Counted from the stretch's first letter, positions 2,370-20,363 are shown. The stretch is 24,000 nt of DNA from Phycisphaerae bacterium (GCA_046753965.1 JBHHUY010000010.1:1-24000), one strand, 5' to 3'. The notes: generated from the sequence alone by a model not told the origin. Program-made: numbers and translations.

Positions 2370-3716
2370 ATGACCGCATCAAGATCCGGCAACCACGGCG
2401 AAGACCTGGCGGCGAACTTCGCCGAGCTCGAACCGCGCTATACACGGGACGAGGCCGTCGCTGAGGCGAGCCGCTGCCTGTTTTGCTACGACGCCCCGTG
2501 CACCCGGGCCTGCCCGACGCACATCGACGTCCCGAAGTTCATCCGGCAGATTCTCCATCGAAACCCGATCGGGGCGGCTGAAACGATCCTGGAAGCGAAC
2601 ATCTTCGGGGGGTCTTGCGCTCGCGCGTGCCCCACGGAAGTGTTGTGCGAAGGGGCCTGCGTGGACAACACGCTTCTCAAGGCGCCCGTGCGGATCGGGC
2701 GGCTCCAGCGGTATGCCTGCGACGAGGCGACGGACCGCGACATCCGTTTCTTCGACGCGGCCGACGACACCGGGAAACACGTGGCGATCGTCGGCGCCGG
2801 GCCTGCGGGGCTCACCTGCGCGCACGAGCTGCGCAAACGCGGACACGCGGTGACCGTCTTCGAAGGCCGCGAGCTTCCCGGCGGAATCAACACCTACGGC
2901 ATCGCCCGCTACAAGTATGACACCGAATTCGCCCTCTCCGAGGTGGCGCGCGTGGAGGCCGTGGGCGGCATCGACCTTCGTCTCCAAACACCGGTCGACG
3001 GTGCGAAGATCGCCGAGTTGCTGAACAAATACGACGCCGTCTTCCTCGGTATCGGGCTCGGAAGAACGGCTCCGCTGGGCATTGAGGGAGAGAATCTCAA
3101 GGGCATCTGGGAAGCCCTCGACTTCATCGAGCAGACCCACACGCTCCCGCTGGAGCAATGCACCTGCGGTCGACATGTCCTGGTCATCGGAGGCGGAAAC
3201 ACGGCCGTCGACGTGGCCACGGCCGCCGTCCGACTCGGGGCCGAGCGGGTCACCATCGCCTACCGCCGCACGGACGCCGAGATGCCGGCCTTCCGGTACG
3301 AATACGATCTGACGCTGGCCGACGGTATTGTCTGGGAGTTTTCCGCCGCGCCGGTGTGTATTCGTGGCGAGAACGGCGCGGTCACCGGTGTCGAATTCGT
3401 GCGAACCCGCCCACAGGGCGAGGGGCGCTCAGCGAAGCTGGAGCACATCGCCGGCTCGAACTTCACGCTGCCCGCGGACATGGTCGTCAAGGCGCTGGGG
3501 CAGGTGCCGCGGGCCGATCTGCTTGAGTCGATTCCGGGCCTGAAGATCGAGCGCGGGCGCGTCGTGATCGACGAGGCAACCGGGGCGACGTCCGTACCCA
3601 GGCTTTTCAGCGGCGGCGACTGCGTCAGCAAGGGCGCCGAGGTAGTCGACGCCGTCCAGGCCGGCAAGATCGCCGCCGCCGGCATCCACGCCCTGATCAC
3701 CGGCAAGGCCGGTTGA
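2370..3716 (+). CDS. NAD(P)-dependent Fe-S flavoprotein, glutamate synthase small-subunit-like / dihydropyrimidine dehydrogenase PreT-like
   Basis: N-terminal Fe-S cysteine clusters RCLFCYDAPCTRACP and CARACPTEVLCEGAC. Two dinucleotide-binding motifs: VAIVGAGPAGLTCAHEL and VLVIGGGNTAVDVA. The C-terminal FSGGDCVSKGAEVVDAVQAGKIAA is typical of the GltD/PreT/AegA family. Confidence 0.8.
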   Translation: MTASRSGNHGEDLAANFAELEPRYTRDEAVAEASRCLFCYDAPCTRACPTHIDVPKFIRQILHRNPIGAAETILEANIFGGSCARACPTEVLCEGACVDNTLLKAPVRIGRLQRYACDEATDRDIRFFDAADDTGKHVAIVGAGPAGLTCAHELRKRGHAVTVFEGRELPGGINTYGIARYKYDTEFALSEVARVEAVGGIDLRLQTPVDGAKIAELLNKYDAVFLGIGLGRTAPLGIEGENLKGIWEALDFIEQTHTLPLEQCTCGRHVLVIGGGNTAVDVATAAVRLGAERVTIAYRRTDAEMPAFRYEYDLTLADGIVWEFSAAPVCIRGENGAVTGVEFVRTRPQGEGRSAKLEHIAGSNFTLPADMVVKALGQVPRADLLESIPGLKIERGRVVIDEATGATSVPRLFSGGDCVSKGAEVVDAVQAGKIAAAGIHALITGKAG

Positions 3717-3761: not shown

Positions 3762-4208
3762 TCAGGCCGAATCCCCATCCTTTGGCTTCTGCACGGCCTT
3801 CAGGTCGATCTCGGCCGTATCGGGCTTGACCTGGGGAAAACGTGAACGATCAGGTTCCTGTCGTTGGGTTTCGAGCGCCCGCAGCAAATCGAGGATCCGC
3901 AGGACGATCACCACGCCGAGAAGCTGGCCGATCACGAAGACCAGATCGTGTCGAATCGAAGCGTAGACGAGAAGCATGACGGTCGCGAGCAGGGCGACGT
4001 AGAGCGTCGGCAACGGGATGGCGATTCGCCCGTACCGCCGCGATGCACGCCAATGAGCGACCAGACATCCGGCGATCATCATCTGGGCGAGCAGCCCGAA
4101 GAACACCCAGGCGACACCGACGCGCCCGCCCGTGAGCGTCTCGATCAGCGCGTCCAGATCAAGGTAGGAGGCGGCCATGAGCACAGCGCCCACTTCCAGA
4201 GGGTTCAT
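3762..4208 (-). CDS. Small integral membrane protein with a lipid-A-biosynthesis N-terminal (LAB_N, PF07578-like) domain
   Basis: Three hydrophobic helices. The segment LLVYASIRHDLVFVIGQLLGVVIVLRIL resembles the LAB_N signature (Y...r.D.VFi.GQ..g..iY.RN). I placed the start at ATG 4208-4206 (MNPLEVG), which overlaps the upstream gene's stop codon as ATGA. Confidence 0.55.
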   Translation of the reverse strand: MNPLEVGAVLMAASYLDLDALIETLTGGRVGVAWVFFGLLAQMMIAGCLVAHWRASRRYGRIAIPLPTLYVALLATVMLLVYASIRHDLVFVIGQLLGVVIVLRILDLLRALETQRQEPDRSRFPQVKPDTAEIDLKAVQKPKDGDSA

Positions 4209-4828
4209 GAAGCCTGCTTCCCCTTGCGTTCGGCCGGCGCGGTTCCGCTCATCGGGCGCCGCGACCACCGACCCGGCCGATGGGCCCTGAGTTGCCGCAA
4301 CTCAGGGCGATCATCTCCCATGTCCGGATCGAATGCGAGCATCTCCGCGACCGCCTGCTCAACCGTCCAACCCTGCCGCTCGATACGATACAAACCACAG
4401 AGGTAACCGGTCCGATGGCGCCCCGCGGAACAGTGAATGAGGACCGGCTGATGCGTTGGATCGTCGACGAAGCGGAAAAAGGCCTCGACCTGGCTGTCCG
4501 GGATGGGCTTTCGGCTCTCCACGGGGATGCGCCAGACCTCCAGTCCTCGCTCCCGGGCATAGGCGGCCTCGTCCGGTACGCGTTTGCTGACCCCGCTCCG
4601 GACGATCAGAATGCTCCGCAACCCGATTCTGCCGATCAGGTGGTCGATCTGGTGCTTGTTGGGCTGGGCGGATCGGTAAAGCAGGCCCGGCTCCACCGCG
4701 GCGAACCGCCTGGGAGTGGTGAAGTAATAGAGCCACAATGGGACCCCGACTGCCAACGCGACGGCTGTCGCGCCCAGGGCGAATCCGAACCGCTTGCGCC
4801 GTCGTATCTTCGGCGGAGAACTCAGCAT
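4205..4828 (-). CDS. Membrane-anchored cysteine phosphatase of the PTP/dual-specificity superfamily (CX5R)
   Basis: Exact active-site P-loop HCSAGRHRTG (C-X5-R followed by T/G). It is preceded by the LYRSAQP...ILIVRS fold pattern of atypical DSP/PTP-like phosphatases. A basic N-terminus and one hydrophobic helix (FGFALGATAVALAVGVPLWLYYF) indicate an N-terminal membrane anchor. Confidence 0.7.
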   Translation of the reverse strand: MLSSPPKIRRRKRFGFALGATAVALAVGVPLWLYYFTTPRRFAAVEPGLLYRSAQPNKHQIDHLIGRIGLRSILIVRSGVSKRVPDEAAYARERGLEVWRIPVESRKPIPDSQVEAFFRFVDDPTHQPVLIHCSAGRHRTGYLCGLYRIERQGWTVEQAVAEMLAFDPDMGDDRPELRQLRAHRPGRWSRRPMSGTAPAERKGKQAS

Positions 4829-4995
4829 GCGAGGGCCATCCGTCTCCGGGGGCGGGTCCGGAGGACGACCGCCTCATCCCACACGCACGCGCCTTGCACC
4901 GACCCGTGCGCCCAGTCCACTCCAGATTATCTTCATGCGCAGCGGTAGGGTACCGACATCGATCGATCGGAGCAACGAGATTCAGGGGACGGGAA

Positions 4996-5023
4996 TTGAC
5001 TCTGCGGATTTCGATCTTATGAT
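4996..5023 (+). promoter_or_regulatory. Near-consensus sigma-70-type promoter upstream of the GT2 gene and the whole plus-strand run
   Basis: TTGACT (4996-5001), 16-nt spacer, TATGAT (5018-5023). This is 5/6 in each hexamer against TTGACA/TATAAT. It lies in a locally AT-richer stretch of the 264-bp divergent intergenic region, about 70 nt upstream of the ATG at 5093. Confidence 0.45.
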
Positions 5024-5092
5024 CCCGCAGGCCGCAGAAACCCCCACTTAGCCGAGCCCGCCGCCGATGAGCCGTCCAGGGGACCGTCCACC

Positions 5093-5842
5093 ATGAAGGC
5101 CTTGATCGCGATTCCCGTCTTCAACGAGCAGCGATACGTGGCGAACATTCTCGCTCGCATCCGGCGCGTCGGGCACGACATCCTTGTCGTGGACGACGGC
5201 TCAACCGATGGCACGCCGGGCATCCTGGCCCGCGAGCCCGGCATCGCCGTGATTCGCCAGCCGGAGAACCGGGGCTATGGCCAGAGCCTGATCGAGGCTT
5301 TTCGCTATGCGGCGCGCGAGGGATACGACTGGCTCATCACGATCGACTGCGACGATCAGCACGAACCCGCCCACATCCCGGAGTTCGTCGAGCGTGCGGC
5401 TCGGGATGATGTCGACGTCGTTTCCGGCTCGCGCTATCTGGCTGCCATGCCCGGCAACACGGCCCCGCCGCCCGATCGACGGCAGATCAACCGGCGGATC
5501 ACGCGGTTGCTGAACCGCCGGCTCGGCCTCCGCCTGACCGATGCCTTCTGCGGCTTCAAGGCGTACCGGGTCGCCGCGGTTGAGCGGCTCTCACTCTCCA
5601 TCCCCGGCTATGCCTTCCCGCTCCAATTCTGGGTGCAGGCGGCACATCACGGCCTGCGTATCTGTGAGTTGCCGGTCCAGCTTATCTACAACGATCCGAC
5701 GCGACACTTCGGCGGCTTGCTCGACGACCCGGACTCCAGGCTGGCACATTACCTTGAGGTCTTCGACGCCGAACTGACAAAGACCGGATACCGGCACGCA
5801 GCCGCATCCCTTGCCGGCGAATCCCGATCCTGTTCGAATTGA
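5093..5842 (+). CDS. Family 2 glycosyltransferase, polyprenol-phosphate glycosyltransferase-like (DPM1/GtrB/ArnC type), soluble catalytic domain only
   Basis: The N-terminus IAIPVFNEQRYV...VVDDGSTDGT, the DXD region ITIDCDDQHEP and VSGSRY are the classic GT-A/GT2 DPM1-like pattern. The 249-aa protein has no evident transmembrane helices. Confidence 0.8.
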   Translation: MKALIAIPVFNEQRYVANILARIRRVGHDILVVDDGSTDGTPGILAREPGIAVIRQPENRGYGQSLIEAFRYAAREGYDWLITIDCDDQHEPAHIPEFVERAARDDVDVVSGSRYLAAMPGNTAPPPDRRQINRRITRLLNRRLGLRLTDAFCGFKAYRVAAVERLSLSIPGYAFPLQFWVQAAHHGLRICELPVQLIYNDPTRHFGGLLDDPDSRLAHYLEVFDAELTKTGYRHAAASLAGESRSCSN

Positions 5843-5936
5843 ACTACGCCAACCGCCGGTCGCGGCAACTCCGTGGGCTCCCACGGCCGGGCGGAGCGAG
5901 CCTCGTTCAGATGACCACCAGGGGTGACAAGCATCC

Positions 5937-7538
5937 ATGACCGCAAGAACCGAGTCCGAGATCGACGCATTCGTCGCACCATCGGCCGACGGTGAACTCC
6001 TCGTCTGGCCGCGGACTCCGGGCCTGCGGGAGGCGGCAGAAGCCAACCGCCGACAACTGAGGAAAGGCGGCCTCCGTCTCCTCGACCGGCCCATCGAAGC
6101 CCTCTCGCCGAATCGGGCGGAGACGCGGCTGGTCTTCATGACCGGCCACCAGCCCGAGTTCTTCCATCCCGGTGTGTGGGCCAAGAACGTGGCCGCCGTG
6201 ATCCTCGCCGGCGCGACCGGCGGCGAAGCCCGCTTCCTCGTCGTCGACAGCGACGTCCCGCATCAAGTCGCACTGCGATGGCCGGATTGCGCCGCCCCTT
6301 ACTGCCAGGTCCGGACGGCGGCGGCCTCGCCGCGGGCGGAATGGCGTTCGTATGAGTTCATCAACGGCGAGACCGAGTATGCCGCGATGTTCGCGGCCCT
6401 CCCTCAGGCCTTCAGAAGTTCCCCGGACCGGCCTTTCCGCGCCTTCATGGGGGCCTTCCTCGGAGATGCGTCGGACGAGGAGCCTTCCGACCAGCCGATG
6501 CGATATGTCGAACGCTGGACACGCGGGATCGAGGCAGCCGAGGCCGCGATGGGCGCTCGCGCCCCTGCGCCTGAACGAATCAGCACGATCTTCGGCACCG
6601 GCCGATGCAGCGGCGCTCCGGCCGCCGCCACCTTCGCCGGCCACCTCATCCTGGAGGCCGATGCCATCTCGAACGCCTACAACACAGCGTTAGGCGAGTA
6701 TCGACGAAGGCGGCGCATTCGCGGCCGACAACACCCGATCCCCGACCTTCAGCGCTTGGGGGACCGGCTCGAAATGCCGTTCTGGTTGGTGCATCCCGAC
6801 CGGCCACGCGAGCGTCTGGCCGTTTCGGGCGTCCAATCGGGGGAGCGCCGGCTCTGGGCGGGACAGCGAGCGTTGGGTTCGGTCTCTCCGGCGGCGTTGC
6901 GGCGCGACCCTGCCGCGGCCCTATCACAAGCCCTCTGCGGCTGGCGAATCAGGCCTCGCGCCCTTGCGCAGACCATGTACGCCCGGCTGCTTGCCTGTGA
7001 CCTCTTCATCCACGGCATCGGCGGTGCGAAGTACGACCAGATCACCGACGGCATCATCCGGCGGTTCTTCGGCGTCGAGCCGCCGGCCTACGCCTGCGTC
7101 TCGGCGACCCTTCGGCTGGCGCTTCGGTCCTACGACATCACGGAGGCCGACCTGGCGAACCTCCGTCACGGGGCTCGCGATCTTCGCTATAACCCGCAGC
7201 GATACGTCGTCGATGGAGAACCGGCTTCCGAGGTTCAGGCTGTCCTGCACGAACGCCGACGGGCCATCGAGGCGTCCGACCGGCTGCGAGCCGAGAGGCC
7301 GAGAGACCGCGCGGCGCGGCGAGCGGCCTTCGAGCGCATTCATCGCGCGAACGCCGCGTTGCTCAGGGCGTCGCCGGGAGTTGTCGAAGCGGCGGCCCGG
7401 AGGCTCCGCGAGGCCGCGGCGAAACTCGAGAACGATCGAGTCGCTCGATCTCGCGAATGGTTCTTCGCGCTGTATCCGAAGACCGCCTTGGAGCGGCTCC
7501 GCGAGGCGATCCGGGCCGCCTTGCGGTCCAACCTGTGA
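5937..7538 (+). CDS. Conserved-looking protein of unknown function, distant BshC-like (putative Rossmann-fold ligase with a helical C-terminal domain)
   Basis: 533 aa. Three motifs resemble my recollection of BshC motifs: FMTGHQPEFFHPGVWAKN (aa 67-84) versus GGQQAGLLTGPLYTIHK; FLVVDSDVPH (aa 100-109) versus FWVAGEDHD; IRPRALAQ...IHGIGGAKYDQ (aa 338-368) versus LRP..Q....GGPGE..Y. The C-terminal ~100 aa is Arg/Ala-rich and helical, like the BshC coiled coil. The assignment was made by eye and needs an HMM search. Confidence 0.4.
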   Translation: MTARTESEIDAFVAPSADGELLVWPRTPGLREAAEANRRQLRKGGLRLLDRPIEALSPNRAETRLVFMTGHQPEFFHPGVWAKNVAAVILAGATGGEARFLVVDSDVPHQVALRWPDCAAPYCQVRTAAASPRAEWRSYEFINGETEYAAMFAALPQAFRSSPDRPFRAFMGAFLGDASDEEPSDQPMRYVERWTRGIEAAEAAMGARAPAPERISTIFGTGRCSGAPAAATFAGHLILEADAISNAYNTALGEYRRRRRIRGRQHPIPDLQRLGDRLEMPFWLVHPDRPRERLAVSGVQSGERRLWAGQRALGSVSPAALRRDPAAALSQALCGWRIRPRALAQTMYARLLACDLFIHGIGGAKYDQITDGIIRRFFGVEPPAYACVSATLRLALRSYDITEADLANLRHGARDLRYNPQRYVVDGEPASEVQAVLHERRRAIEASDRLRAERPRDRAARRAAFERIHRANAALLRASPGVVEAAARRLREAAAKLENDRVARSREWFFALYPKTALERLREAIRAALRSNL

Positions 7539-7551
7539 CGGAAGGCACGCC

Positions 7552-8463
7552 GTGGCCGACCCGCGTCCCGCTCATACCCCCGTCTTGCCCGAGCAGGTGG
7601 TCGCCTGCTTCTCGACCGATGGGTCGCGCACTGTGGTGGATTGCACGGTCGGCCTGGGGGGCCACGCCGAACTGCTTCTGGAGGCCTGCCCGGACCTGCG
7701 GATCATCGGCCTTGATGTGGATGATGAGAATCTGGCTGCGGCCGCGCGTCGTCTGGAAGCCCACGCGGACCGGGTCAAACTCGTCCACGCGAGCTTCGCG
7801 GGGCTGGAACAGGTGCTCGCCGAAGGAGACCACGGCCCCGTAGCCGGGATTCTGGCGGACCTCGGGGTCAGCAGCAACCAGATCAGCGACGCCCGTCGCG
7901 GCCTCAGCTTCGACATCGACGGGCCGCTCGACATGCGGCTGGATCGGCGGCTCAAGACGACCGCCGCCGATCTGGTCAACGGGCTCTCCGAGGGCGAGCT
8001 GTCCGATCTGCTCTACTTTCAGAGCCAGGAACGGCACAGCCGCAGAATCGCCAAACGGATTTGTCAAGTCCGGCGGCAGGGCCGGATCAGCAGCACCGTG
8101 CAGCTCGCGCGAATCGTGGCGTCGGCCGTCGGAGAACACCCGGACTCCCATCGGCGGCGAATCCACCCCGCGACCCGGACGTTCATGGCCCTGCGAATGT
8201 CGATCAATCAGGAACCGGCCGCGCTGCGGGAACTGCTCCGGATCGCCCCGGCAATCCTCGCCGAAGGCGGCCGAATCGCGGTCATCAGCTTCCACAGCGT
8301 CGAGGACCGAATCGTAAAAGATGACTTTCGGGCCCGATCTCGTGAAGGGATCTACCGGATTCTGACGAAAAAACCTATGGTTGCGAATGACGCGGAACGG
8401 GCGGCCAATCCGCGCAGCCGATCGGCGAAACTGAGGATCGCCGAGCGCCGGGCGACGAGATGA
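7552..8463 (+). CDS. rsmH: 16S rRNA (cytosine1402-N4)-methyltransferase RsmH (MraW)
   Basis: HTPVLPEQVV, DCTVGLGGHAELLL, ADLGVSSNQISD..RGLSF and SFHSVEDRIVKDDF are the canonical RsmH motifs. I placed the start at GTG 7552, preceded by GGAAGG at 7540-7545. The longer track ORF from 6964 overlaps the upstream gene in another frame. Confidence 0.9.
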   Translation: MADPRPAHTPVLPEQVVACFSTDGSRTVVDCTVGLGGHAELLLEACPDLRIIGLDVDDENLAAAARRLEAHADRVKLVHASFAGLEQVLAEGDHGPVAGILADLGVSSNQISDARRGLSFDIDGPLDMRLDRRLKTTAADLVNGLSEGELSDLLYFQSQERHSRRIAKRICQVRRQGRISSTVQLARIVASAVGEHPDSHRRRIHPATRTFMALRMSINQEPAALRELLRIAPAILAEGGRIAVISFHSVEDRIVKDDFRARSREGIYRILTKKPMVANDAERAANPRSRSAKLRIAERRATR

Positions 8464-8578: not shown

Positions 8579-9745
8579 GTGACCAGGGAAACCAAAATCG
8601 GTCTGTTGGTGGGCCTCGCGTTCATCATCCTCTTCGCCATCATCCTCTCCGAAAAAGGCGATACTCGCGGAACCCAGCCCCCTTCCGGCTTGACGGTGGT
8701 GGATGCCAATCGATCGACCGGAGGGCCCCTATCAAACAACCAGGAACCGCTCTCTCGCGCGGGTCGCCTGCCGGTCAAGCCGGCCGCTCCCCAGCCAACC
8801 CAGATGGCCCGACACGACGCCGACGTCCCGACGATGTTGGAGGAGCCGGTCGGGAAGCCCATCCCGGCCGAGGACGAGGCCATCATGCCGTTGCCCGAGG
8901 CGGTCCGAAACCGGCTTAACATGCCGATGATCGAGACCGAGGTGGCCGTCAATCAGCCCGGCACCGAGGCGGGCGGATCGATGTCCTTGACGCAGGCGCT
9001 GACTTCGGCGCTGGAGGGAGCCGGTTCGGCGTCCTCTGATGCCGCCGTGGACGACACCGGCATGGCCGAGCCGATCACGCCTGACATGACCCAGGCGAGC
9101 ATGCTCGAGGCGCCCCCCGCCAAGGCCCCTCAAGCCGCGCCGCCGAAGTCCATGAAAACCATCGCAATTCACACCGTCCGGCCCCGCGAGAGCCTGAGCA
9201 AGATCGCCGCCCGGTACTACGGCCGGTCCACGCCGGCACGGGTTGCTGCGATCTTCAACGCCAATCGCGACCGCCTTAAGTCGATCGGGACGATTCGCGT
9301 GGGGCAGGAACTGAATATCCCACAACTGGATGAACTCCAGGGGATCGCTTTTCAGCCGGTGACCCATTTCGCGCCTTCGGAGCTTCCGCGTTCGCGATCA
9401 ACGCACCGCGAGATGTCCGTCCGGATTCCGGTGCCGCTTGACGCGCAGGCGGCACCCACCGCCCCGCCGATCGCGTCTGCCAAACGGGCGGAGCAGGCAC
9501 ACCCGGCTTCGCGGGCGTTCAGGTGGTATCAGGTCAGAGAGAAAGACACACTCAGCCGGATCGCGAAACGCGAATTGGGAGATGAGAAGCGCTTCCTCGA
9601 AATCTACCGGATGAACCAGGACATCATCCGCAACAAGCATCGGATCAAGCCGGGGATGAAGATCCGCCTGCCGGTCCGCACGGTGACGCGGGCGGGATCG
9701 GATGCCGCGTTGTCCGGCCTGGTTCCGTCGGCGATCGGGCCGTAG
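8579..9745 (+). CDS. Bitopic membrane protein with two C-terminal LysM peptidoglycan-binding domains
   Basis: GTG start at 8579 preceded by AGGGAGG (8565-8571). N-terminal helix IGLLVGLAFIILFAIIL. A long Pro/Ala/Gln/Glu-rich low-complexity linker follows. LysM 1: HTVRPRESLSKIAARYYG...IRVGQELNIP. LysM 2: YQVREKDTLSRIAKRELGD...IKPGMKIRLP. Confidence 0.8.
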   Translation: MTRETKIGLLVGLAFIILFAIILSEKGDTRGTQPPSGLTVVDANRSTGGPLSNNQEPLSRAGRLPVKPAAPQPTQMARHDADVPTMLEEPVGKPIPAEDEAIMPLPEAVRNRLNMPMIETEVAVNQPGTEAGGSMSLTQALTSALEGAGSASSDAAVDDTGMAEPITPDMTQASMLEAPPAKAPQAAPPKSMKTIAIHTVRPRESLSKIAARYYGRSTPARVAAIFNANRDRLKSIGTIRVGQELNIPQLDELQGIAFQPVTHFAPSELPRSRSTHREMSVRIPVPLDAQAAPTAPPIASAKRAEQAHPASRAFRWYQVREKDTLSRIAKRELGDEKRFLEIYRMNQDIIRNKHRIKPGMKIRLPVRTVTRAGSDAALSGLVPSAIGP

Positions 9746-9754
9746 GAGACGGCC

Positions 9755-10030
9755 ATGACCGTGCCGCGCGCGCTCCTGGTTCTGTTCATGCTGGTGATTA
9801 TCGGTGTGGCGATTGTGGCGATTCGCCAAGAATCGGCAAGAACGGCGAATCGCATCCAAACCCTCCACCGCCGGAAGATCACCCTCGAACAGACGCTTTG
9901 GACGAAGGAACTCGAACTGGCGAAGCTACGGGGCCCCGAGGCGATTCGCCGGCGGGCCGCAGAGCTGGGCTCGAACGTCGTTTCGCCGGGCGTGCCTCCG
10001 AGTTCCGATCGGCGTCGGAGCGGTTCCTAG
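9755..10030 (+). CDS. ftsL: FtsL-like cell division protein (short bitopic coiled-coil protein)
   Basis: 91 aa, ATG preceded by AGGAG. One TM helix (ALLVLFMLVIIGVAIVAI) is followed by a heptad-like helix and the tail PEAIRRRAAELG, typical of FtsL. It occupies the canonical position immediately upstream of ftsI. Confidence 0.6.
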   Translation: MTVPRALLVLFMLVIIGVAIVAIRQESARTANRIQTLHRRKITLEQTLWTKELELAKLRGPEAIRRRAAELGSNVVSPGVPPSSDRRRSGS

Positions 10031-10064: not shown

Positions 10065-11825
10065 ATGGATGCCTTGCGGTCGCGCTTCTCACAACTCACC
10101 GGGCATTGGCTGATCGGGACCGTTCTCGCGGTCCTGCTGCTCCTCGTCGGGCGGCTCGTCTACATCAACACTTACAACCGCCCCGTGTTGCTGTCCCGCG
10201 CTCAGAAGCAGCACCGCTCGGATGTGCCGATCAAGGCGCGGCGAGGTCTGATCGTGGATCGCGTCGGCCGGATCCTCTCGGGGACGATGCTGCGGAAGAG
10301 CGTCTTTGCCGATCCGCAGGTCCTGCCCGACAAGCGACATGCGGCCGAGACGGTCGCCCGCGTCCTCGATCTGGATTTCGGGGAGATCGCACCCGACCTG
10401 CTCGCCGCAGGGGACCGTCGCTTCTTCGTCATTCGGCGCGGGGTCACCGAGGAACAGGCGCGTCGGATCAGCGCGGAGGGGATCTACGGCCTCGGCGTCT
10501 TCAGCGAACCCTATCGAACCTACCCGATGCACACCCTGGCCGCGGCCCTGATCGGCTTTGTCGCGCCGGACGGGCGCGGCATCAGCGGGCTTGAGCACCA
10601 GTGCGATGCCTGGCTCCGCGGAGAGAACGGCGTCAAGACGATCATCCGCGATGCGGGCCGCAAAGCCTTCTGGCTCGCCGATCGAGGCTATCGCCCCGCT
10701 CGCGATGGGTTCCACGTCGTCCTGACGATCGATGCCGAAATCCAGGCGACGGTCGAACGCTCACTCTCCGCCGCTGTGGCACGTTTCCGGGCCGCCGGCG
10801 GCGTCGCCGTCGTGATGGACCCGGTCACCGGTGCCGTCCTCGCCATGGCCAATGTCCCCGGCTTCGATCCAAACGACTACACGGATTCCAGCAGCGAGCG
10901 ATATCGCAACCGAACGATCACCGATCCTTTCGAGCCGGGCAGCACTTTCAAACCGTTCATCGCGGCCGGGGCGCTTGCCGAAGGCGTCGTGCGCTACGGA
11001 GAGGTGTTCGATTGCGAACGCGGCGTCTGGCGCGACGGATCACGAACCCTGCGAGACCACCATCCGTATGATTTCCTGACGTTTGAAGAGATCATCATTC
11101 GCTCCAGCAACATCGGGATGGGCAAGCTCGGCAAGCGGCTGGGCAACGCGCTGATCTACAAATATGTCAAGGCGTTCGGATTCGGCGAGAAGACGGGGAT
11201 CGACCTGGAGGCCGAAGATCCGGGCATCCTCCGGCCGCTGCCGCGCTGGAACGACTTCTCGACCACCAGTATTCCGATGGGACAGGAGATCGCCGTCACG
11301 CCGCTGCAACTGACCAGGGCGTTCTGCGTCTTCGCCAACGGCGGAAGACTCGTTCGGCCCTACGTGATCCGCGCCGTGATGGATGCCGAGGGCCGTGTGG
11401 TCAGCGACCTGACGCCGCCGCCGGCAGCCGGACAGGCCCTGCCGGCCGATCTTGTCAACGAGATGAAGGACAGGATTCTTTGCGAAGTGGTGAATCAATC
11501 CCACAGCGGCTCGGCGAAGCTGGCCGACTACCAGGTGTTCGGCAAGACCGGGACGGCCCAGATCGCCCGCAAAGGGGGCGGCGGCTACGAGCCGAACGCC
11601 TATGTCAGTTCGTTTGTCGGCGGCGCACCCGCGCACGCGCCCAGACTGGTCGCGTTCGTTGCCGTTCGCAGACCGGACAAATCGGTCGGCTACTACGGTG
11701 CGACCGTGGCGGCGCCGGTTGTGCGGGAAATCCTGGGCGAAAGTCTGGCCTACCTCCAGGTTCCCCCGGACCGCATGGCGCCCCGCGAATGGACGGCGTC
11801 GGCGGGCGACGCCGCCGAGGACTAG
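10065..11825 (+). CDS. ftsI: Class B penicillin-binding protein, peptidoglycan D,D-transpeptidase FtsI (PBP3)
   Basis: TM helix WLIGTVLAVLLLLVG. Dimerisation-domain motif ARRGLIVDRVGRIL. Transpeptidase motifs STFKP (SxxK), SSN (SxN) and KTGT. I placed the start at ATG 10065 (MDALRSRF); the track ORF start at 9804 overlaps ftsL. Confidence 0.9.
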   Translation: MDALRSRFSQLTGHWLIGTVLAVLLLLVGRLVYINTYNRPVLLSRAQKQHRSDVPIKARRGLIVDRVGRILSGTMLRKSVFADPQVLPDKRHAAETVARVLDLDFGEIAPDLLAAGDRRFFVIRRGVTEEQARRISAEGIYGLGVFSEPYRTYPMHTLAAALIGFVAPDGRGISGLEHQCDAWLRGENGVKTIIRDAGRKAFWLADRGYRPARDGFHVVLTIDAEIQATVERSLSAAVARFRAAGGVAVVMDPVTGAVLAMANVPGFDPNDYTDSSSERYRNRTITDPFEPGSTFKPFIAAGALAEGVVRYGEVFDCERGVWRDGSRTLRDHHPYDFLTFEEIIIRSSNIGMGKLGKRLGNALIYKYVKAFGFGEKTGIDLEAEDPGILRPLPRWNDFSTTSIPMGQEIAVTPLQLTRAFCVFANGGRLVRPYVIRAVMDAEGRVVSDLTPPPAAGQALPADLVNEMKDRILCEVVNQSHSGSAKLADYQVFGKTGTAQIARKGGGGYEPNAYVSSFVGGAPAHAPRLVAFVAVRRPDKSVGYYGATVAAPVVREILGESLAYLQVPPDRMAPREWTASAGDAAED

Positions 11826-11914
11826 GAACTCGGCGCTCCGCACAGCGAGGCAAGAGACAGCGCTTGAGACGTTCGGCGGACCGGATCGCCGATCGGCGTT
11901 ACAATGCCGCCGCC

Positions 11915-13444
11915 ATGGACAGGAGCACTCCGGCAGGGACCGCTGACACGACGATCCGAACCGCAGTCCGTTTACCGGATCTGGTGCGCCGGGCATTGGG
12001 GGCCAAACTCCCACCGACGGGTGACGCGCCGGTCCAGATCACCAACATCTGTTGTGACTCGCGTGAGGCCCGCCCCGGAGCCCTCTTCGTCGCGGTACCG
12101 GGCACCCACGCGGACGGCGCGGGCTTCGCCGCTGACGCGATTCGGCGCGGCGCCGCGGCTGTCGTCGCGGACCGACCGCTCGCTCTGCCCGTCGGGGTTC
12201 CCATCATCAGGGTCGCCAACGCGAGAGCCGCCGTCTCCCCGTTGGCGGCGACCTTCTTCGGGCTCGACCGGATTCAGGCCGGCGGCGAAATGGCCACGGT
12301 GGGCATCACCGGCACGAACGGCAAGAGCACGGTCGCTTACATGCTCCGTGCGATCCTCTGCCGGGCCGATCGGCGGGCGGCGCTGCTGGGCACGATCGAA
12401 TACGATCTCATCCGCCGAAAGCTGCCCGCCACACTGACGACGCCCGATCCGATCACCCTGGTCCGCCACCTGGTCGAAGCCCACGAGGCCGGCGCGTCGC
12501 ACGCCGTTCTGGAGGTGTCGTCGCACAGCCTCGACCAGCGCCGCACCGCCGGCATCGTCTTTTCGGCCGCCGTGTTGACGAACCTGACGCAGGACCACAT
12601 GGATTACCACGCCACCGCCGAGGCCTACCTGCGAGCCAAACGCCGCCTGTTCGACGACCTGCCAAGAGACGCCGTTGCCGTCGTTAACGCCGATGACCCG
12701 GCGAGCGGCCGCATCCTGGAGCGATGTCAGGCGCCGACCCTCCGATACGGGCTGCGTGAACCCGCAGAGGTTCGCGGCCGGGTACTCTCGGAAACCAAAG
12801 CCGGGGGACAACTCCTGATCGAGCATGGCGGCCGAGCGACCGAAGTGCGAACCGCCCTGGTCGGCCGACACAACCTGTCAAATGCCCTGGCGGCGGCGGC
12901 GGCGGCGATTGCCATCGGGCTCGAGCTCGACGCCGTCCGAGCAGGCTTGGCCGATCTGCGGCATGTGCCGGGCCGGCTCCAGCCGGTGGAAACACACGCA
13001 CTGGGCTTTGATGTCTTCGTCGATTACGCCCACACCGACGACGCACTGAGAAATGTGCTTCGGGCCTTGCGACCACTCACACCCGGCAAGTTGTGGTGCG
13101 TGTTCGGATGCGGCGGTGATCGCGACCGATCGAAACGCCCGCTCATGGCGCAGGCGGTGGCGGAAGGCGCTGACGCGTTTGTCGTCACGAGCGACAATCC
13201 ACGGACGGAAGACCCGTTGGCCATCATCGCCGAGATCGAGCGGGGCTTGACCGCGTCGCAGCGCCGGCGCGGTGAGACGGTGCCTGATCGGCGTGAGGCC
13301 ATCCGCCGTGCTGTTGAACATCTCGCGCCGGGTGATACGCTTCTGATCGCCGGCAAGGGACACGAGACGTACCAGATTCTTGGCGAAACGCGGATTCACT
13401 TCGACGACTTGGAGACTGCGTCGGAAGCGGTCGGGCAGAGATAG
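11915..13444 (+). CDS. murE: UDP-N-acetylmuramoyl-L-alanyl-D-glutamate--2,6-diaminopimelate ligase MurE
   Basis: P-loop GITGTNGKST and the Mur ligase central and C-terminal domains. The DNPR motif (VTSDNPRTEDP) is characteristic of meso-DAP-adding MurE. Start at ATG 11915 (MDRSTPAG). Confidence 0.9.
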   Translation: MDRSTPAGTADTTIRTAVRLPDLVRRALGAKLPPTGDAPVQITNICCDSREARPGALFVAVPGTHADGAGFAADAIRRGAAAVVADRPLALPVGVPIIRVANARAAVSPLAATFFGLDRIQAGGEMATVGITGTNGKSTVAYMLRAILCRADRRAALLGTIEYDLIRRKLPATLTTPDPITLVRHLVEAHEAGASHAVLEVSSHSLDQRRTAGIVFSAAVLTNLTQDHMDYHATAEAYLRAKRRLFDDLPRDAVAVVNADDPASGRILERCQAPTLRYGLREPAEVRGRVLSETKAGGQLLIEHGGRATEVRTALVGRHNLSNALAAAAAAIAIGLELDAVRAGLADLRHVPGRLQPVETHALGFDVFVDYAHTDDALRNVLRALRPLTPGKLWCVFGCGGDRDRSKRPLMAQAVAEGADAFVVTSDNPRTEDPLAIIAEIERGLTASQRRRGETVPDRREAIRRAVEHLAPGDTLLIAGKGHETYQILGETRIHFDDLETASEAVGQR

Positions 13445-13445: not shown

Positions 13446-14843
13446 ATGCGGGCCCTTACACTACAAGAGATGGCTTCGGCCATGGGCGGGCGAGTCTACG
13501 GCGAGATCACGACGCCCCGGATCACCAGTGTCTCAACGGACTCGCGCGCGTTTCGAGAAGGCGCGCTGTTCTTCGCCATCAAGGGCGAACGATTCGACGG
13601 CCACGTGTTTGTGGAAACCGTCCTGGAACAGGGCGCCGCCGCGGCCGTGGTCGATGACGTCTCCAAAGTCGATCGGAAGTATCGCACCTCCGGCCGATTG
13701 GTCGAGGTCCCTGACACGGTTCTGGCCCTCGGCCGACTGGCCGGCTGGTACCGGCGACAGTTCGCCGCGCAGGTCATCGCGGTCTTGGGGAGCAACGGCA
13801 AGACGACGGTCAAGGATCTGATCGGCGCCGTGCTCGGCTCGACACTGCCCGGACGGGTGGCCGAAGCGAGTTTCAACAACGCAATCGGCGTCCCGTTGAC
13901 GTTGCTCGCGGCCGAGCCGGCCGACGAGTTCCTCGTGGTCGAGATCGGAACCAATCATCCGGGAGAGGTGGCCACCCTGGCCCGCATCGCCAGTCCGGAT
14001 CTGGCTGTCGTCACGAGCATCGGCGAGGAACACCTGGCCTTCTTCGAAAACCTGGAGGCCGTCGCGCGAGAGGAGTTTTCGTTCCTCTCGCTGATGCGGA
14101 GCCGCGCGTTTGTCGCCGTGAGCGACCAGGCCGCGCCCTACGCCCCCCGCCGAACCGACCGCTCCTGTGTGATGCTGACTTACGGCTGCGACGCGGGCGC
14201 CGACCTGCGAGCCGAAAACATCAAACAGAATCAGCGGGGACAGCGCTTTCGCGTGAACGGCCGATTCGACTACACCATTCCATTGTTCGGCAGGCACAAC
14301 GTACGAAACGCCCTGGCCGCGATTGCAATTGGAACGCGTTTCCGGCTGCCGCATGACCGGATCGCGGCGGCCCTGTCCAAGTGCCACGCGCCGCCGATGC
14401 GACTGGAGCGGCGGAAGCTCGGCTCTATCACGGTGATCAATGACGCCTACAACGCCAATCCCGGCAGCATGCGCGCCGCCTTCGAGGCCATGGACGCCAC
14501 GACGGAAGCCCGGCGCCGCGTCTTCATCCTCGGAGACATGCGCGAGCTGGGAACGGCGGCGGCGCGATGTCACGGCGCCGTCGGGCGCGAGGCGGGTCGG
14601 TCATCGGCCCAGGTCATCGTGGCCGTCGGAGACCATGCCCGCGTCATCGCCGACGGCGCGACCGTCACGGCCGGAACCTCCAAGCGCATCTACGCCTATC
14701 CGTCGGTCGCGGCACTCAAGAACAAACTGCCCGATCTGCTGGAGCCGGGTGATGTCGTGCTCTTGAAGGCCTCCAGGGCCGTCAGGCTCGAACAGTTGGT
14801 CGAACCCATCGCGAAATGCGCGCACTACACGATCGTGGATTGA
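13446..14843 (+). CDS. murF: UDP-N-acetylmuramoyl-tripeptide--D-alanyl-D-alanine ligase MurF
   Basis: VSTDSR...ALFFAIKGERFDGH, P-loop VLGSNGKTTVKD, and VINDAYNANPGSM. ATG 13446 lies 1 nt after the murE stop codon. Confidence 0.9.
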   Translation: MRALTLQEMASAMGGRVYGEITTPRITSVSTDSRAFREGALFFAIKGERFDGHVFVETVLEQGAAAAVVDDVSKVDRKYRTSGRLVEVPDTVLALGRLAGWYRRQFAAQVIAVLGSNGKTTVKDLIGAVLGSTLPGRVAEASFNNAIGVPLTLLAAEPADEFLVVEIGTNHPGEVATLARIASPDLAVVTSIGEEHLAFFENLEAVAREEFSFLSLMRSRAFVAVSDQAAPYAPRRTDRSCVMLTYGCDAGADLRAENIKQNQRGQRFRVNGRFDYTIPLFGRHNVRNALAAIAIGTRFRLPHDRIAAALSKCHAPPMRLERRKLGSITVINDAYNANPGSMRAAFEAMDATTEARRRVFILGDMRELGTAAARCHGAVGREAGRSSAQVIVAVGDHARVIADGATVTAGTSKRIYAYPSVAALKNKLPDLLEPGDVVLLKASRAVRLEQLVEPIAKCAHYTIVD

Positions 14844-14898: not shown

Positions 14899-16029
14899 GT
14901 GATCTATCACCTGCTCAAACACTTGATCAAGGGACACTACGGCTATGAGAACCCCCTCTTCCGCGCGACGGTCGCGATCCTGGTGGCGTTCCTGGTCGTC
15001 TGGACGCTCGGTCCTTCGGTCATCCGCTGGCTGATCCGGATGAAATGCGGCGACATCCCCGATTTCGATCACCGCGAGCTCAACGAACTGACGATCCACA
15101 AGGCCAACGTCCCGACCATGGGCGGGTTGCTGATCCTGTTCGGCGTGGCGACGGGCGTGCTCCTCCTGGCGGACCTCACGGTCTTCTACATCCATCTCGC
15201 GCTGACCTGCATGGCCTGGCTGGGCGCCGTCGGCTTCTGCGACGACTGGTTCAAGCTCATGGACAAGGGCAAAAACCGTAACCGAGACGGACTCAAGTTC
15301 TACCAGAAACTGCTGTTTCAGATGGGACTGGGCGTGATGCTCGGCTTTTTCATCTACAAGGTCGGGAAGCAGGCCTATCAAGGGCAGGAGATCGAGCTCT
15401 TCCGAATCCTCAGCATTCCCTTCGTCAAGGGCGACCTTCAAAATCCGATCCTCCTGTCCGTGCCCGCCTTCATCATCATCACCATTCTTGTCGTCGCCGG
15501 CACCTCCAACGCCGTGAACCTCACCGACGGAATGGACGGGCTGGCCGCCGGCTGCGTCGCCATGTGCTGTCTCGTGTTCATGTTGCTCTCTTTCGCCGTG
15601 GGAAACGAGGATCTGGCGCGCTACCTCCAGTATTCTCACATCCCCAGGGCCGGCGAACTTTCGGTCCTCTGCGGCGCGATGCTGGGGGCTTCGCTGGGAT
15701 TCCTCTGGTACAACGCCAACCCGGCCCAGGTTTTCATGGGCGACACGGGCTCCCTTCCGCTCGGCGGCCTGATCGGGTTCGTCGCCATCGTGATCCGCCA
15801 GGAACTCATGTTGCTGATCGTCGGGGGCGTATTCGTCATCGAGGCGCTCTCAGTGATGCTCCAGGTCGGATACTTCAAGGCCAGCGGCGGCAAACGGCTC
15901 TTCCTCATCGCCCCGATCCACCACCACTTTCACCTCAAAGGATGGAAGGAGAATCAGGTCGTTATCCGATTCTGGCTGCTGTCCGCCCTCTTCGCGGTCG
16001 TGGCCTTGGCGACGACAAAACTCCGATAG
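14899..16029 (+). CDS. mraY: Phospho-N-acetylmuramoyl-pentapeptide transferase MraY
   Basis: PTMGGLLIL, CDDWFKL, NAVNLTDGMDGLA, MGDTGSLPLGG and APIHHHF are canonical MraY motifs in a polytopic membrane protein. GTG start at 14899. Confidence 0.9.
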   Translation: MIYHLLKHLIKGHYGYENPLFRATVAILVAFLVVWTLGPSVIRWLIRMKCGDIPDFDHRELNELTIHKANVPTMGGLLILFGVATGVLLLADLTVFYIHLALTCMAWLGAVGFCDDWFKLMDKGKNRNRDGLKFYQKLLFQMGLGVMLGFFIYKVGKQAYQGQEIELFRILSIPFVKGDLQNPILLSVPAFIIITILVVAGTSNAVNLTDGMDGLAAGCVAMCCLVFMLLSFAVGNEDLARYLQYSHIPRAGELSVLCGAMLGASLGFLWYNANPAQVFMGDTGSLPLGGLIGFVAIVIRQELMLLIVGGVFVIEALSVMLQVGYFKASGGKRLFLIAPIHHHFHLKGWKENQVVIRFWLLSALFAVVALATTKLR

Positions 16030-16041: not shown

Positions 16042-17316
16042 ATGATAGACGGGGCGGACGGCCGATCGTTCAGCTCGGTGACCCCCTGGAGGCAGGAAAT
16101 GCTTCGCGTCGACAGCCAGCCGTCGCCCACCAGCACAACGATCACCATCGCCGCATCCGCGCTGCTCGGCCTCGGCATCGTCATGGTCTTCTCCGCCGGT
16201 GCGAGCCTGTCTGCGCCGCCGCTGACCGAGCATCCGCTTCGCAACCCATCGGTGCGCCAGGCCGGGTTCACCCTCGCGGCCCTCACCACCATGCTGATGG
16301 TGGGCTTGTGTCCCTATGATTCGTGGCGAATCCGCAGGCGATCGTTCTTCCAGCCGGTCCTCCTGCTCCTGCTGCTCATCCTCGTTCCCGGCATCGGCGA
16401 ATCCCGTCACGGGGCCCGGCGATGGCTGCCGCTCGGCCCGGCCGGCCTGGGGCTCGGGTTTCAGCCCTCGGAAGTCGCAAAGCTGGCGCTCGTGCTGTTC
16501 CTGGCCGCGTTTTGCTCGCGCATCGGCGATAGGATTCGCAGTTTCTGGCTCGGGTTTCTGCCGGCCGTCGCCGTGATCGGTACCATCGTCGGCTTGGTCG
16601 GAGTCGAGGACTTCGGTACGGCGGCCTTATTGGCTGTCGTCGGGGTTTCGATCCTGTTGGCAGGCGGCGCGAGGCCGTGGCACCTGCTGCTCCTCAGTCT
16701 GCCCGCCGTGGGAGGCGTCGTCACCCTGATCGCAATGAAACCTTATCGCCTCGCGCGGTTGACGTCGTTTCTTCATCCGGAGGCCGACCCGCAGGGCGCG
16801 GGGTACCACCAGATCCAATCGCTCGTGACGATCGCCTCGGGCGGCTGGTGGGGAAGAGGTCTTGGTGCCGGCATCCAGAAGTACGGCTATTTGCCCGAGG
16901 GGCGGACGGACTTTATCTTCGCCGTGATTTGCGAGGAATTGGGAATCGTCGGCGGCATCGCCGTGATCGCGTTGTTCGGCGTCCTGCTCTGGCAAGGCAG
17001 ACGCGCGATGCAGCGGGCCCCGAACGAGTTCGGGCGCCTCCTCGCCCTGGGGGTCACGCTCATGATCGGCTTGCAGGCGGCCATGAATGTCGCGGTCGTG
17101 ACGGTTTCGGTTCCGACCAAAGGCATCGGCCTTCCACTGGTATCCGCCGGCGGAACAGGCGTCGTCCTCTTCAGCATCCTCATCGGCCTTCTCGTCAACG
17201 TGGCGCGGCGACGATCTCCCGAAAGAAGCCGGCGACCGCGGAGCGATGTGGTTGCCCCCGTTCTCCCACCGGTTTCGTTCGCCGGTACACTCGCGACCAC
17301 GAGTGAGGCGCATTGA
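16042..17316 (+). CDS. ftsW: SEDS-family peptidoglycan glycosyltransferase / lipid II flippase-like protein FtsW
   Basis: Polytopic protein with the FtsW/RodA/SpoVE motifs RWLPLGP...FQPSEVAKLALVLFLA, PEGRTDFIFAVICEELG and GIGLPLVSAGGTG. It sits in the dcw cluster between mraY and murG. The start could be 16042 or the internal ATG near 16099. Confidence 0.85.
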   Translation: MIDGADGRSFSSVTPWRQEMLRVDSQPSPTSTTITIAASALLGLGIVMVFSAGASLSAPPLTEHPLRNPSVRQAGFTLAALTTMLMVGLCPYDSWRIRRRSFFQPVLLLLLLILVPGIGESRHGARRWLPLGPAGLGLGFQPSEVAKLALVLFLAAFCSRIGDRIRSFWLGFLPAVAVIGTIVGLVGVEDFGTAALLAVVGVSILLAGGARPWHLLLLSLPAVGGVVTLIAMKPYRLARLTSFLHPEADPQGAGYHQIQSLVTIASGGWWGRGLGAGIQKYGYLPEGRTDFIFAVICEELGIVGGIAVIALFGVLLWQGRRAMQRAPNEFGRLLALGVTLMIGLQAAMNVAVVTVSVPTKGIGLPLVSAGGTGVVLFSILIGLLVNVARRRSPERSRRPRSDVVAPVLPPVSFAGTLATTSEAH

Positions 17317-17366: not shown

Positions 17367-18485
17367 ATGCCCACCGATAGACCTTGGTTCGTCATCGCCG
17401 GCGGCGGAACGGGTGGACATCTCTATCCGGGGCTGGCCGTGGCGGATGCGCTCCGCGCTGGCGCGCCGGACTATGATGTCACCGTCTTCGGAACGCCGCG
17501 CCCGATCGACAGGCGTCTGACCGAGCCACGCCGGATCGAACTCGTCGAACAACCCGTCCTGCCGTTTCCCCGGAAACCGCTGGAACTCTACCGGTTTCTC
17601 CGGGCCTGGCGTTGCTCCGTCACGGCGGCGCGGGCGCGTTTCAAGAAACGCAGGCCCGCCGTCGTCCTGGGGTTGGGCGGCTATGCCGCGGGGCCGCCCT
17701 TCGTCGCCGCGGCGAAGCTGCGGGTTCCCACAGCATTGTTCAACCCGGATGCGCTTCCGGGCCTCGCCAACAGGCGTCTGGCCCCGAAGGCAGATCGCAT
17801 CTTCGTCCAGTGGCGGGAAACGGCCGAGCAATTCAGTCGATCAGAACGCGTCCGCTGCACCGGCTGTCCCATCCGCGCCGACTTCGCCTTCGCCGATCGT
17901 GCCGAGGCTGTTCACGCCCTGAAGCTCGATCCCCGGCGCAAGACGCTCCTTGTCACCGGAGCCTCCCAGGGCGCCTGGTCCATCAACGCCGCGATGCTCC
18001 AGCTTGTTGACCTCTGGCGAGCCCTCACCGACTGGCAGATCGTCCATCTGACCGGCACAACCGATCTGCAGACCTGTCGTCAGAAGTACGCGCAAGAAGG
18101 CATCCGCGCGCGGACCTTCGCGTTCACCGAGCACATGCCGCGGTGCATGGCCGCCGCCGATCTGATCCTGAGTCGCGCGGGGGCGGGCACGCTCGCGGAA
18201 ATCACGGCGATGGGTCTGCCCAGCGTCCTGATGCCTTATCCGTTCGACAGAAAGAAGCACCAGCTCGCGAACGCCCGAGTCCTGGTCGGCGCGCATGCCG
18301 CCGTGCTCGTCGAGGACGCGAACAACCCGGAGATCAACGCGGAACGCCTGCGCGGGGTTCTCGGCAATCTCATGAAATCCGAGGACCGACGTCGTCATCT
18401 GGGTGAGGTGGCCGGTGCGATGGGACGGCACGACGCCGCGGAAACCATCGCCGCCGAATTGCTCGAGCTGGCGCGCGCGGGTTGA
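17367..18485 (+). CDS. murG: Undecaprenyldiphospho-muramoylpentapeptide beta-N-acetylglucosaminyltransferase MurG
   Basis: N-terminal AGGGTGGHLYPGLAVADAL, TGASQGA, and SRAGAGTLAEITAMGLPSVLMPYP are typical MurG (GT28) motifs. Confidence 0.9.
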   Translation: MPTDRPWFVIAGGGTGGHLYPGLAVADALRAGAPDYDVTVFGTPRPIDRRLTEPRRIELVEQPVLPFPRKPLELYRFLRAWRCSVTAARARFKKRRPAVVLGLGGYAAGPPFVAAAKLRVPTALFNPDALPGLANRRLAPKADRIFVQWRETAEQFSRSERVRCTGCPIRADFAFADRAEAVHALKLDPRRKTLLVTGASQGAWSINAAMLQLVDLWRALTDWQIVHLTGTTDLQTCRQKYAQEGIRARTFAFTEHMPRCMAAADLILSRAGAGTLAEITAMGLPSVLMPYPFDRKKHQLANARVLVGAHAAVLVEDANNPEINAERLRGVLGNLMKSEDRRRHLGEVAGAMGRHDAAETIAAELLELARAG

Positions 18486-20333: not shown

Positions 20334-20363
20334 TTCAGATACCGACCGTGTTTGTGTTATCAT
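20334..20363 (+). promoter_or_regulatory. Candidate sigma-70-type promoter for the GH13 gene
   Basis: TTCAGA (20334-20339), 18-nt spacer, TATCAT (20358-20363), in a short AT-richer patch. This would give a ~70-nt leader ending in a strong GGAGGAG Shine-Dalgarno sequence (20428-20434). Confidence 0.3.

Follow-up and report, generated by a model that had tools for sequence, protein, structure and literature searches.

A GT2 glycosyltransferase and a protein with a BshC-like predicted fold form a conserved gene pair in Planctomycetota, placed ahead of the dcw block in one Phycisphaerae subclade

The stretch of DNA considered here, which we call the window, comprises 24,000 nucleotides (nt) from a Phycisphaerae bacterium (GCA_046753965.1, JBHHUY010000010.1:1-24000), with a G+C content of ~65%. 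Two of its plus-strand genes are our principal subject: one encodes a soluble GT2 glycosyltransferase of 249 amino acids (aa; 5093-5842, +; PF00535), and the other, an open reading frame (ORF) at 5937-7538 (+), an uncharacterized 533-aa protein that we have named X533 and describe through its predicted fold. Upstream of GT2 is a sigma-70-like promoter element, TTGACT-N16-TATGAT (4996-5023, +), which matches the consensus at 10/12 positions, and 13 nt beyond X533 begins rsmH (mraW; 7552-8463, +), recognized by PF01795 (2.9e-90) and TIGR00006 (273 bits). Divergent from GT2, across a single 264-nt intergenic region (4829-5092), lie a membrane-anchored Cys-based phosphatase of 207 aa bearing the motif HCSAGRHRTG (4205-4828, -; PF03162) and a LAB_N small membrane protein of 148 aa with three transmembrane-like segments by hydropathy (3762-4208, -; PF07578). 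An initial annotation had read these four genes as one envelope-lipid module standing in place of mraZ at the head of the genes for division and the cell wall (dcw). That interpretation is partly supported: GT2 and X533 do form a unit, to which the phosphatase and LAB_N genes do not belong.

The evidence for the pair comes from its recurrence. Loci were searched as six-frame ORFs against the window proteins and against profile hidden Markov models (HMMs) built from them, and 85 X533 loci carried enough upstream sequence to be informative. In 80 of the 85, a co-oriented GT2 ortholog lies directly upstream of X533, at an estimated median gap of ~2 nt, and 38 of those 80 pairs overlap or abut. 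The pair extends to metagenome-assembled genomes (MAGs) labeled Thalassoglobus, Planctomycetaceae, Pirellulaceae and Gemmataceae, and no neighbor other than GT2 is kept across classes in the X533 loci. X533 is itself a member of a large family. When one genome per GTDB species was scanned, relatives turned up in at least 581 genomes; the best 80 of these are all labeled Planctomycetota or its lineages, mostly Phycisphaerae, bar one MAG titled 'bacterium'. A word-indexed search returned 872 homologs, and searching 1.84 billion representatives with a profile placed the family at 3,730 clusters at 50% identity (E <=1e-3). Every named protein among the 872 is called 'hypothetical' and none carries a Pfam domain, in keeping with the earlier impression that this gene combination is undescribed; ten additional representatives of the family are likewise unnamed. 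GT2 and X533 are, we conclude, a genuine functional unit: a two-gene operon found across Planctomycetota.

Within Phycisphaerae the pair keeps more regular company. The usual gene divergent from GT2, in 51 X533 loci, encodes a TPR-repeat protein of ~200-390 aa (e.g. L024:3635-4714(-) and L087:4160-5038(-)), the L024 representative having a lipoprotein-like N-terminus. On the other side, X533 is followed after ~76 nt by a DUF1844 protein in 18 loci (e.g. L047:5698-6129), by a rhomboid-TPR protein in 23 (e.g. L039:8277-9494), and by a class IV (D-amino-acid or branched-chain) aminotransferase in 17 (e.g. L066:9452-10324). The TPR lipoprotein, DUF1844, rhomboid and aminotransferase genes represent synteny inside Phycisphaerae, not a phylum-wide association.

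For GT2, profile matches point to a particular type. Beyond its match to PF00535 (1.3e-31, 110 bits), the best NCBIfam match is PpgS (NF058614, E 1.4e-31, model positions 3-203 of 226), followed by AglJ, dolichyl-phosphate hexose transferase and ArnC, while other GT2 families match at only 1e-5 to 1e-9. The closest solved structures are Pyrococcus furiosus DPMS (5mlz) and ArnC, and D85-x-D87-x-Q-H, along with other motifs, is invariant in 76 orthologs. By these profile and structural matches, GT2 appears to be a polyprenyl-phosphate glycosyltransferase of the DPM1/PpgS/ArnC-like type, and the DPM1/ArnC kinship proposed at the outset is borne out. Hydropathy likewise confirms that the enzyme lacks any transmembrane-like segment. 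In this, in its length within the ~230-250 aa range, and in its tight pairing with a second protein, GT2 is reminiscent of PpgS, GacI and DPM1. It departs from them in its C-terminal region, which reads R-H-F-G-G in place of the R-x-x-G-x-S-K usual for the type, and in the nature of its partner, a soluble 533-aa Rossmann protein rather than a small three-transmembrane one. The partner of PpgS and GacI is a DUF2304 protein (GacJ/Rv3632) (bioRxiv 10.1101/180810).

X533 finds nothing in Pfam or NCBIfam at E <=0.01, and searching the PDB by sequence or profile likewise returned nothing for it. An AlphaFold (AF2) model built on an alignment of 39 family members reached a predicted local distance difference test score (pLDDT) of 91.6 and a predicted template modeling score (pTM) of 0.89; it depicts a Rossmann core into which subdomains are inserted, and long C-terminal helices (431-530). 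When the model is compared with the PDB by Foldseek, the top match is Bacillus subtilis BshC (4WBD), with E 1.8e-10 and probability 1.0 over 527 alignment columns at 12% identity. This is the sole match below E 1e-3; TyrRS, GlnRS, TrpRS, CysRS and GluRS come after it, at E ~2e-3 and weaker. X533 is thus, on its predicted structure, a relative of BshC without detectable membership of the BshC sequence family, and the label 'BshC-like' that it had been given holds for the fold and fails for the sequence.

The resemblance to BshC (YllA, 4WBD) goes somewhat beyond overall fold. The two proteins are of similar size (533 vs 539 aa), in both a G-[HQ]-Q motif comes after the beta1 strand, each has a genetic association with a step of glycosyl transfer, and in some lineages each gene immediately precedes the rsmH/dcw block. 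By eye, further correspondences can be proposed—G-[HQ]-Q...G...K in both, DSD against EDHD, and R-P...F-I-x-G-x-G-x-x-x-Y. The differences are also clear. X533 has H-P-G where BshC has T-G-P; its partner is an inverting, lipid-phosphate-type GT2, where that of BshC is the GT4 enzyme BshA; no BshB-type deacetylase lies near it; and it belongs to a different phylum. Neither BshA (GT4) nor BshB (an LmbE deacetylase) recurs within ~6 kb of X533 across 86 loci. With MshC and the class I aminoacyl-tRNA synthetases (aaRS; CysRS, TyrRS, GlnRS), X533 shares the Rossmann catalytic fold, recovered at Foldseek ranks 2-50, and possibly a partial HIGH-like element, H77-x-G79, and the GGAK365 loop, if the equivalence holds. 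These matches are weak (E >=2e-3, TM-score ~0.2), and X533 contains neither a canonical HIGH nor a KMSKS motif and shows no homology to an anticodon-binding domain.

What the fold might do is suggested by its conserved residues. The family has more than 55 invariant positions, among them many Arg, Asp and His, and its invariant motifs are GHQP...HPG...K, DSD and IHGIGGAKYD. H77-P-G79 opens the first helix, and GGAK365 forms a glycine-rich loop with a lysine; the two resemble, and may be equivalent to, the HIGH element and the phosphate-binding element found in class I nucleotide-binding folds. Cytidylyl- and adenylyltransferases, which have HxGH-type motifs, also belong to the HUP Rossmann class, and it is conceivable that X533 is a nucleotidyltransferase that makes the activated donor, or a non-ligase accessory that allosterically supports a GT2 devoid of transmembrane helices, as DPM2/3 and GacJ do. 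That the first helix opens with the invariant H77-P-G79 would suit the former role, and the tight translational coupling of the two genes fits a complex. We nonetheless judge such a role for X533 quite unlikely: its fold matches are BshC and aaRS rather than small nucleotidyltransferases, it has no membrane segment and so cannot serve as an anchor, and the sheer number of invariant Arg, Asp and His residues argues for catalysis.

The phosphatase and its LAB_N neighbor have a history of their own. The CX5R phosphatase matches PF03162 (Y_phosphatase2) at 61.6 bits against a cutoff of 27, and its closest solved relatives are Siw14 (6byf, 1.5e-11), TpbA (4r0s, 1.8e-10) and plant PFA-DSP1. It had been taken for a PTPMT1-type enzyme; that identity is not supported, since the DSPc model PF00782 scores 30.7 bits, under its cutoff of 33.5, and no PTPMT1 chain is found among the PDB matches. 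The protein is instead of the Siw14/PFA-DSP/TpbA type, with which it shares a CX5R active site, here HCSAGRHRTG. A transmembrane-like segment spans residues 13-36, just preceded by RRRKR; as in TpbA, this N-terminal hydrophobic segment is consistent with export or anchoring, and the charge distribution suggests that the catalytic domain probably faces the periplasm, like that of TpbA. Two features set it apart from Siw14, PFA-DSP and TpbA: its translational coupling to a LAB_N membrane protein, through an ATGA overlap (4205-4208) that was noted at the outset and checked on the sequence, and the position of its relatives behind a FecCD-type ABC importer. The LAB_N protein matches PF07578 with E 7e-11 (42.5 bits, cutoff 26.7).

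Homologs of the phosphatase (n=93) come mostly from Phycisphaerae, an identical copy being recorded by NCBI from a Phycisphaerae MAG, and three relatives that are 51-55% identical (L084, L085, L086) are each followed by a small membrane protein of 136-161 aa. In two of the three the genes overlap by 4 nt, while in the other 75 nt separate them; the small protein of L085 is annotated LAB_N, and those of L084 and L086 fall below the PF07578 cutoff yet are homologous. In all three the pair is preceded on the same strand by a Peripla_BP_2/ABC_tran/FecCD importer (L084:2161-6079, L085:1994-6139, L086:2087-6086), of the iron-siderophore or cobalamin type; the window has no importer at that position. 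None of the three loci contains GT2 or X533. Conversely, HMMs for the phosphatase (from 93 sequences) and for LAB_N gave zero hits in 86 other X533 loci, searched over ~6 kb, and the gene divergent from GT2 in the six dcw-linked relatives that were read (L001-L003, L087-L089) is a TPR gene in five and dprA in one. On the far side of LAB_N, a convergent GltD/DPD-like oxidoreductase gene (2370-3716, +; profile matches to Fer4_20 and Pyr_redox_2) has its counterpart in L084 (6090-7466), so that synteny with this relative is kept on the GltD side and broken on the GT2 side. Because the phosphatase-LAB_N pair is absent from the 86 other X533 loci, and GT2 and X533 are absent from L084-L086, the intergenic region 4829-5092 marks a synteny breakpoint. 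The phosphatase and LAB_N genes are a separate conserved pair, set beside GT2 by lineage-specific rearrangement, and the region as a whole is the point where two unrelated gene pairs meet, each conserved separately.

This bears directly on the notion of a single envelope-lipid pathway, in which LAB_N would anchor or activate GT2 and the phosphatase would act on a lipid phosphate intermediate. The idea has a certain appeal: the genes diverge around one intergenic region, a GT2 without transmembrane helices could need a membrane partner, and the related enzymes GacI and PpgS do use small three-transmembrane partners (bioRxiv 10.1101/180810). Synteny has already largely refuted it, through the empty X533 loci, the TPR and dprA genes that occupy the divergent position, and the conservation of the phosphatase-LAB_N pair elsewhere, behind an importer. 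In addition, the known partner family of those GT2s is not LAB_N, and the phosphatase is Siw14/TpbA-like and probably periplasmic; we regard a four-gene pathway as highly improbable. The suggestion that LAB_N domains occur beside such GT2s likewise received no support here, and a literature search on PF07578/LAB_N gave nothing relevant. What had looked like a module is a synteny breakpoint rather than a pathway, and recognizing it as such corrects a tempting over-interpretation.

Transcription of the GT2-X533 pair appears to start from the promoter-like element. TTGACT-N16-TATGAT is the sole plus-strand site with at least 9/12 matches between 3600 and 19000, although across the window the count of such sites (2 found vs 1.6 expected) is not above chance. 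Comparison between genomes is more telling, and supports the promoter call made from the window. In L002, L005, L006, L088 and L089 identical hexamers stand upstream of GT2, roughly at -89 nt relative to its start, and close variants appear in many further loci. Within 150 nt upstream of GT2, a match of at least 9/12 is present in 35 of 77 loci vs 23 of 1,428 control windows drawn from the same loci, and a match of at least 10/12 in 15 of 77 vs 1 of 1,428; the median position relative to the GT2 start is -89, with an interquartile range of -97 to -80. In an alignment of 14 GT2-upstream regions, conservation is confined to the two hexamers. A riboswitch in the GT2 5' untranslated region is unlikely, since that leader is not conserved, and an Rfam scan of the whole window matched zero RNA families. 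We assign the element to GT2-X533, and it probably serves the dcw genes downstream as well.

Those genes follow X533 in a long co-oriented series with short gaps. After rsmH come a LysM membrane protein (8579-9745, +; PF01476), an FtsL-like protein of 91 aa with an N-terminal transmembrane segment and a coiled coil (9755-10030, +), recognized by hydropathy and sequence and with zero Pfam matches, an FtsI-type penicillin-binding protein (PBP; 10065-11825, +; PF00905 and PF03717; start chosen among candidates), a MurE-type ligase (11864-13444, +; start at 11789, 11864 or 11915) and a MurF-type ligase (13446-14843, +; ATG at 13446, 1 nt past the MurE stop), both identified by Mur ligase domains, and then MraY (14899-16029, +; PF00953), FtsW (16042-17316, +; PF01098, 6.5e-89) and MurG (17367-18485, +; PF03033 and PF04101). 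Counting the FtsL-like ORF, there are eleven plus-strand genes from GT2 to murG, as first described, with successive gaps of 94, 13, 115, 9, 34, ~38, 1, 55, 12 and 50 nt. Terminator-like hairpins number 6 vs 9.5 expected by chance, and the hairpin scan placed none between GT2 and rsmH; the earlier failure to see a convincing terminator is upheld.

Set against a canonical mraZ-rsmH dcw cluster, the block keeps the order rsmH-ftsL-ftsI-murE-murF-mraY-...-ftsW-murG. It differs in having no mraZ, the position before rsmH being occupied by GT2-X533; in the insertion of the LysM gene after rsmH; and in the absence of murD, murC, ftsQ, ftsA and ftsZ. In the window mraY leads directly to ftsW and murG, and ddl, like the five genes just named, does not follow. 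Every dcw-linked relative has, after rsmH and before the ftsL-like gene, a gene for a LysM membrane protein of ~380-400 aa, which could be a component of the divisome, or one that binds peptidoglycan, specific to this lineage of bacteria without FtsZ. The genes at the ftsL position in the relatives that were read, L001, L002 and L087-L089 among them, encode proteins of 84-103 aa.

Linkage of the pair to this block is real and of limited range. The order GT2-X533-rsmH-LysM-FtsL-PBP-MurE-MurF is found among the called genes of L001, L002 and L087-L089, and GT2-X533-rsmH-...-MurF by homology in L005, L006, L011, L014 and L034; L016 has no GT2 and retains X533-rsmH-LysM-PBP, and L017 retains the order up to PBP, where its contig ends. 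A neighbor-joining tree of 85 X533 sequences groups all 13 dcw-linked loci in a single 17-tip clade, whose remaining four tips are two truncated contigs, L008 and L009. Since the linked loci all belong to one clade, the linkage arose once; it has been mostly retained and is confined to one Phycisphaerae subclade. In this clade the pair stands at the dcw head, the place of mraZ in other bacteria; recurrence of GT2 and the 533-aa protein upstream of rsmH, which had been raised as a question, is seen there and not phylum-wide. Within the clade, GT2-X533 are probably co-transcribed with the dcw genes.

Whether the placement has any meaning for the cell wall is another matter, and it is quite possible, if somewhat short of probable, that it is a neutral accident of synteny in one subclade. 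The linkage is seen in only ~13 of 85 loci and has a single origin. In L008 (917-9659) homologs of MurF, MurE and PBP lie on the opposite strand, convergent with GT2-X533, which makes co-transcription impossible there, and in L009 the linkage has been lost. Elsewhere co-transcription is read only from the short gaps, from the fact that terminators are lacking, and from there being a single promoter-like site. Moreover, the pair occurs in MAGs labeled Pirellulaceae and Gemmataceae, orders in which a 2025 survey reported the loss of murA, murC, murD, murF, murG, murJ and ftsW (PMC12283558). With most lipid II genes reported missing from these orders, the function of GT2-X533 is unlikely to depend on lipid II and is probably not tied to its synthesis. 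Three observations run counter to pure accident. The gene order has been kept among relatives whose X533 proteins are only 36-53% identical, with X533-rsmH gaps of -4 to 90 nt; the 13-kb block has no other consensus-like plus-strand promoter; and BshC has a similar address. In B. subtilis, bshC (yllA) lies directly upstream of mraZ-rsmH. In Staphylococcus aureus MW2 bshC does so as well (PMC8572050). That two phyla so far apart both have a BshC-fold gene ahead of rsmH may be chance, and we have no explanation for it. The gene organization itself—two pairs, a GT2-X533 operon, and its placement at the dcw head—is well supported, and we hold it with high confidence.

For the chemistry of the pair we propose a scheme of sugar transfer followed by ligation. 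GT2 would move a hexose or N-acetylhexosamine (HexNAc) from a nucleotide sugar onto a phosphorylated acceptor at the cytoplasmic face of the membrane, the acceptor most likely being polyprenyl phosphate; the product might instead be a soluble glycoside. The Rossmann site of X533, formed by its GHQP...HPG...K, DSD and IHGIGGAKYD motifs, would bind ATP, and the protein would attach a carboxylate, an amino acid being the likeliest, to the sugar product of GT2. Such a scheme would mirror the logic of BshA-BshC and MshA-MshC with a different, inverting GT2: bacillithiol and mycothiol synthesis both couple a glycosyltransferase with a ligase of class I aaRS fold (PMC4360819). The proposed reactions, drawn by analogy, are tentative.

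The closest form of the analogy would have GT2 glycosylate a small acceptor and X533 add cysteine, yielding a soluble low-molecular-weight thiol or glyco-amino-acid that acts as a redox buffer in Planctomycetota. BshC as best fold match, with CysRS also in the list, leans this way, as do the enzyme logic shared by both known sugar-thiol routes and the phylum-wide distribution of the pair with its conserved sigma-70-like promoter element; Planctomycetes, furthermore, are reported to have no known or predicted low-molecular-weight thiol (PMC6282198), a gap that such a product could fill. On balance we consider a soluble thiol unlikely. GT2 is nearest to lipid-phosphate glycosyltransferases and not to the GT4 enzymes BshA and MshA, and no LmbE-type deacetylase is linked in the X533 loci, which together make a plain replica of the Bsh pathway less likely; nor was sequence homology of X533 to BshC or MshC detected. 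A broader formulation, for which our confidence is still low, is that GT2-X533 constitutes an unrecognized Planctomycetota-specific route, leading either to a low-molecular-weight thiol built on a sugar or to a polyprenyl-phosphate sugar that is aminoacylated and decorates the envelope.

Taken as a whole, the best explanation that we can offer combines a GT2 and BshC-fold X533 operon, a separate phosphatase-LAB_N pair and the sugar-then-ligation mechanism, and we would place it only a little below an even chance. A number of findings weigh against it. On the X533 side, PF10079 and TIGR03998 do not match the protein, a PDB profile search with it misses 4wbd, and against 4WBD its global TM-score reaches only 0.45. 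Profile-profile comparison by hhalign with BshC gave a probability of 0.07 and E 0.69 over 10-13 columns at several settings, the sole aligned segment being the beta1 strand and the GHQ/GQQ motif. The BshC profile contained 18 aligned proteins; its query is 99% identical to database BshC proteins carrying PF10079, and the genuine BshC set all carry PF10079 and PF24850. With neither family HMMs nor hhalign significant, membership of X533 in the BshC sequence family is rejected. On the GT2 side, the PpgS equivalog model scores 109.7 bits where its cutoff is 370, and the enzyme falls far below every equivalog cutoff. As to the pathway, no deacetylase, flippase or GT-C protein recurs near GT2-X533 (~6 kb, 86 loci), so a full lipid-linked or thiol pathway is not visible. 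Finally, the ligase activity of BshC has never been reconstituted in vitro (PMC4360819), so that the analogy rests on genetics and is limited to that extent.

The interest of the system lies in what X533 is: a large unannotated family with the fold of BshC, an enzyme whose own chemistry has yet to be settled. That it is almost always paired with GT2 supplies a concrete, testable two-enzyme system, in a phylum whose envelope biosynthesis is unusual and debated and for which no low-molecular-weight thiol is known. If our proposal were true, X533 would be a new enzyme family, a structural sister of BshC.

The flanks of the window hold a few further genes. Ahead of the GltD-like gene, candidate ORFs at 937-2319 (+; 460 aa) and 261-911 (-; 216 aa) have no Pfam match, and both are overlapped by long antisense ORFs, as expected at 65% G+C. 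After murG lie a PQQ_2/BamB-like beta-propeller gene (18687-20069) and, following it, an alpha-amylase-family gene encoding 871 aa (20362-22977).

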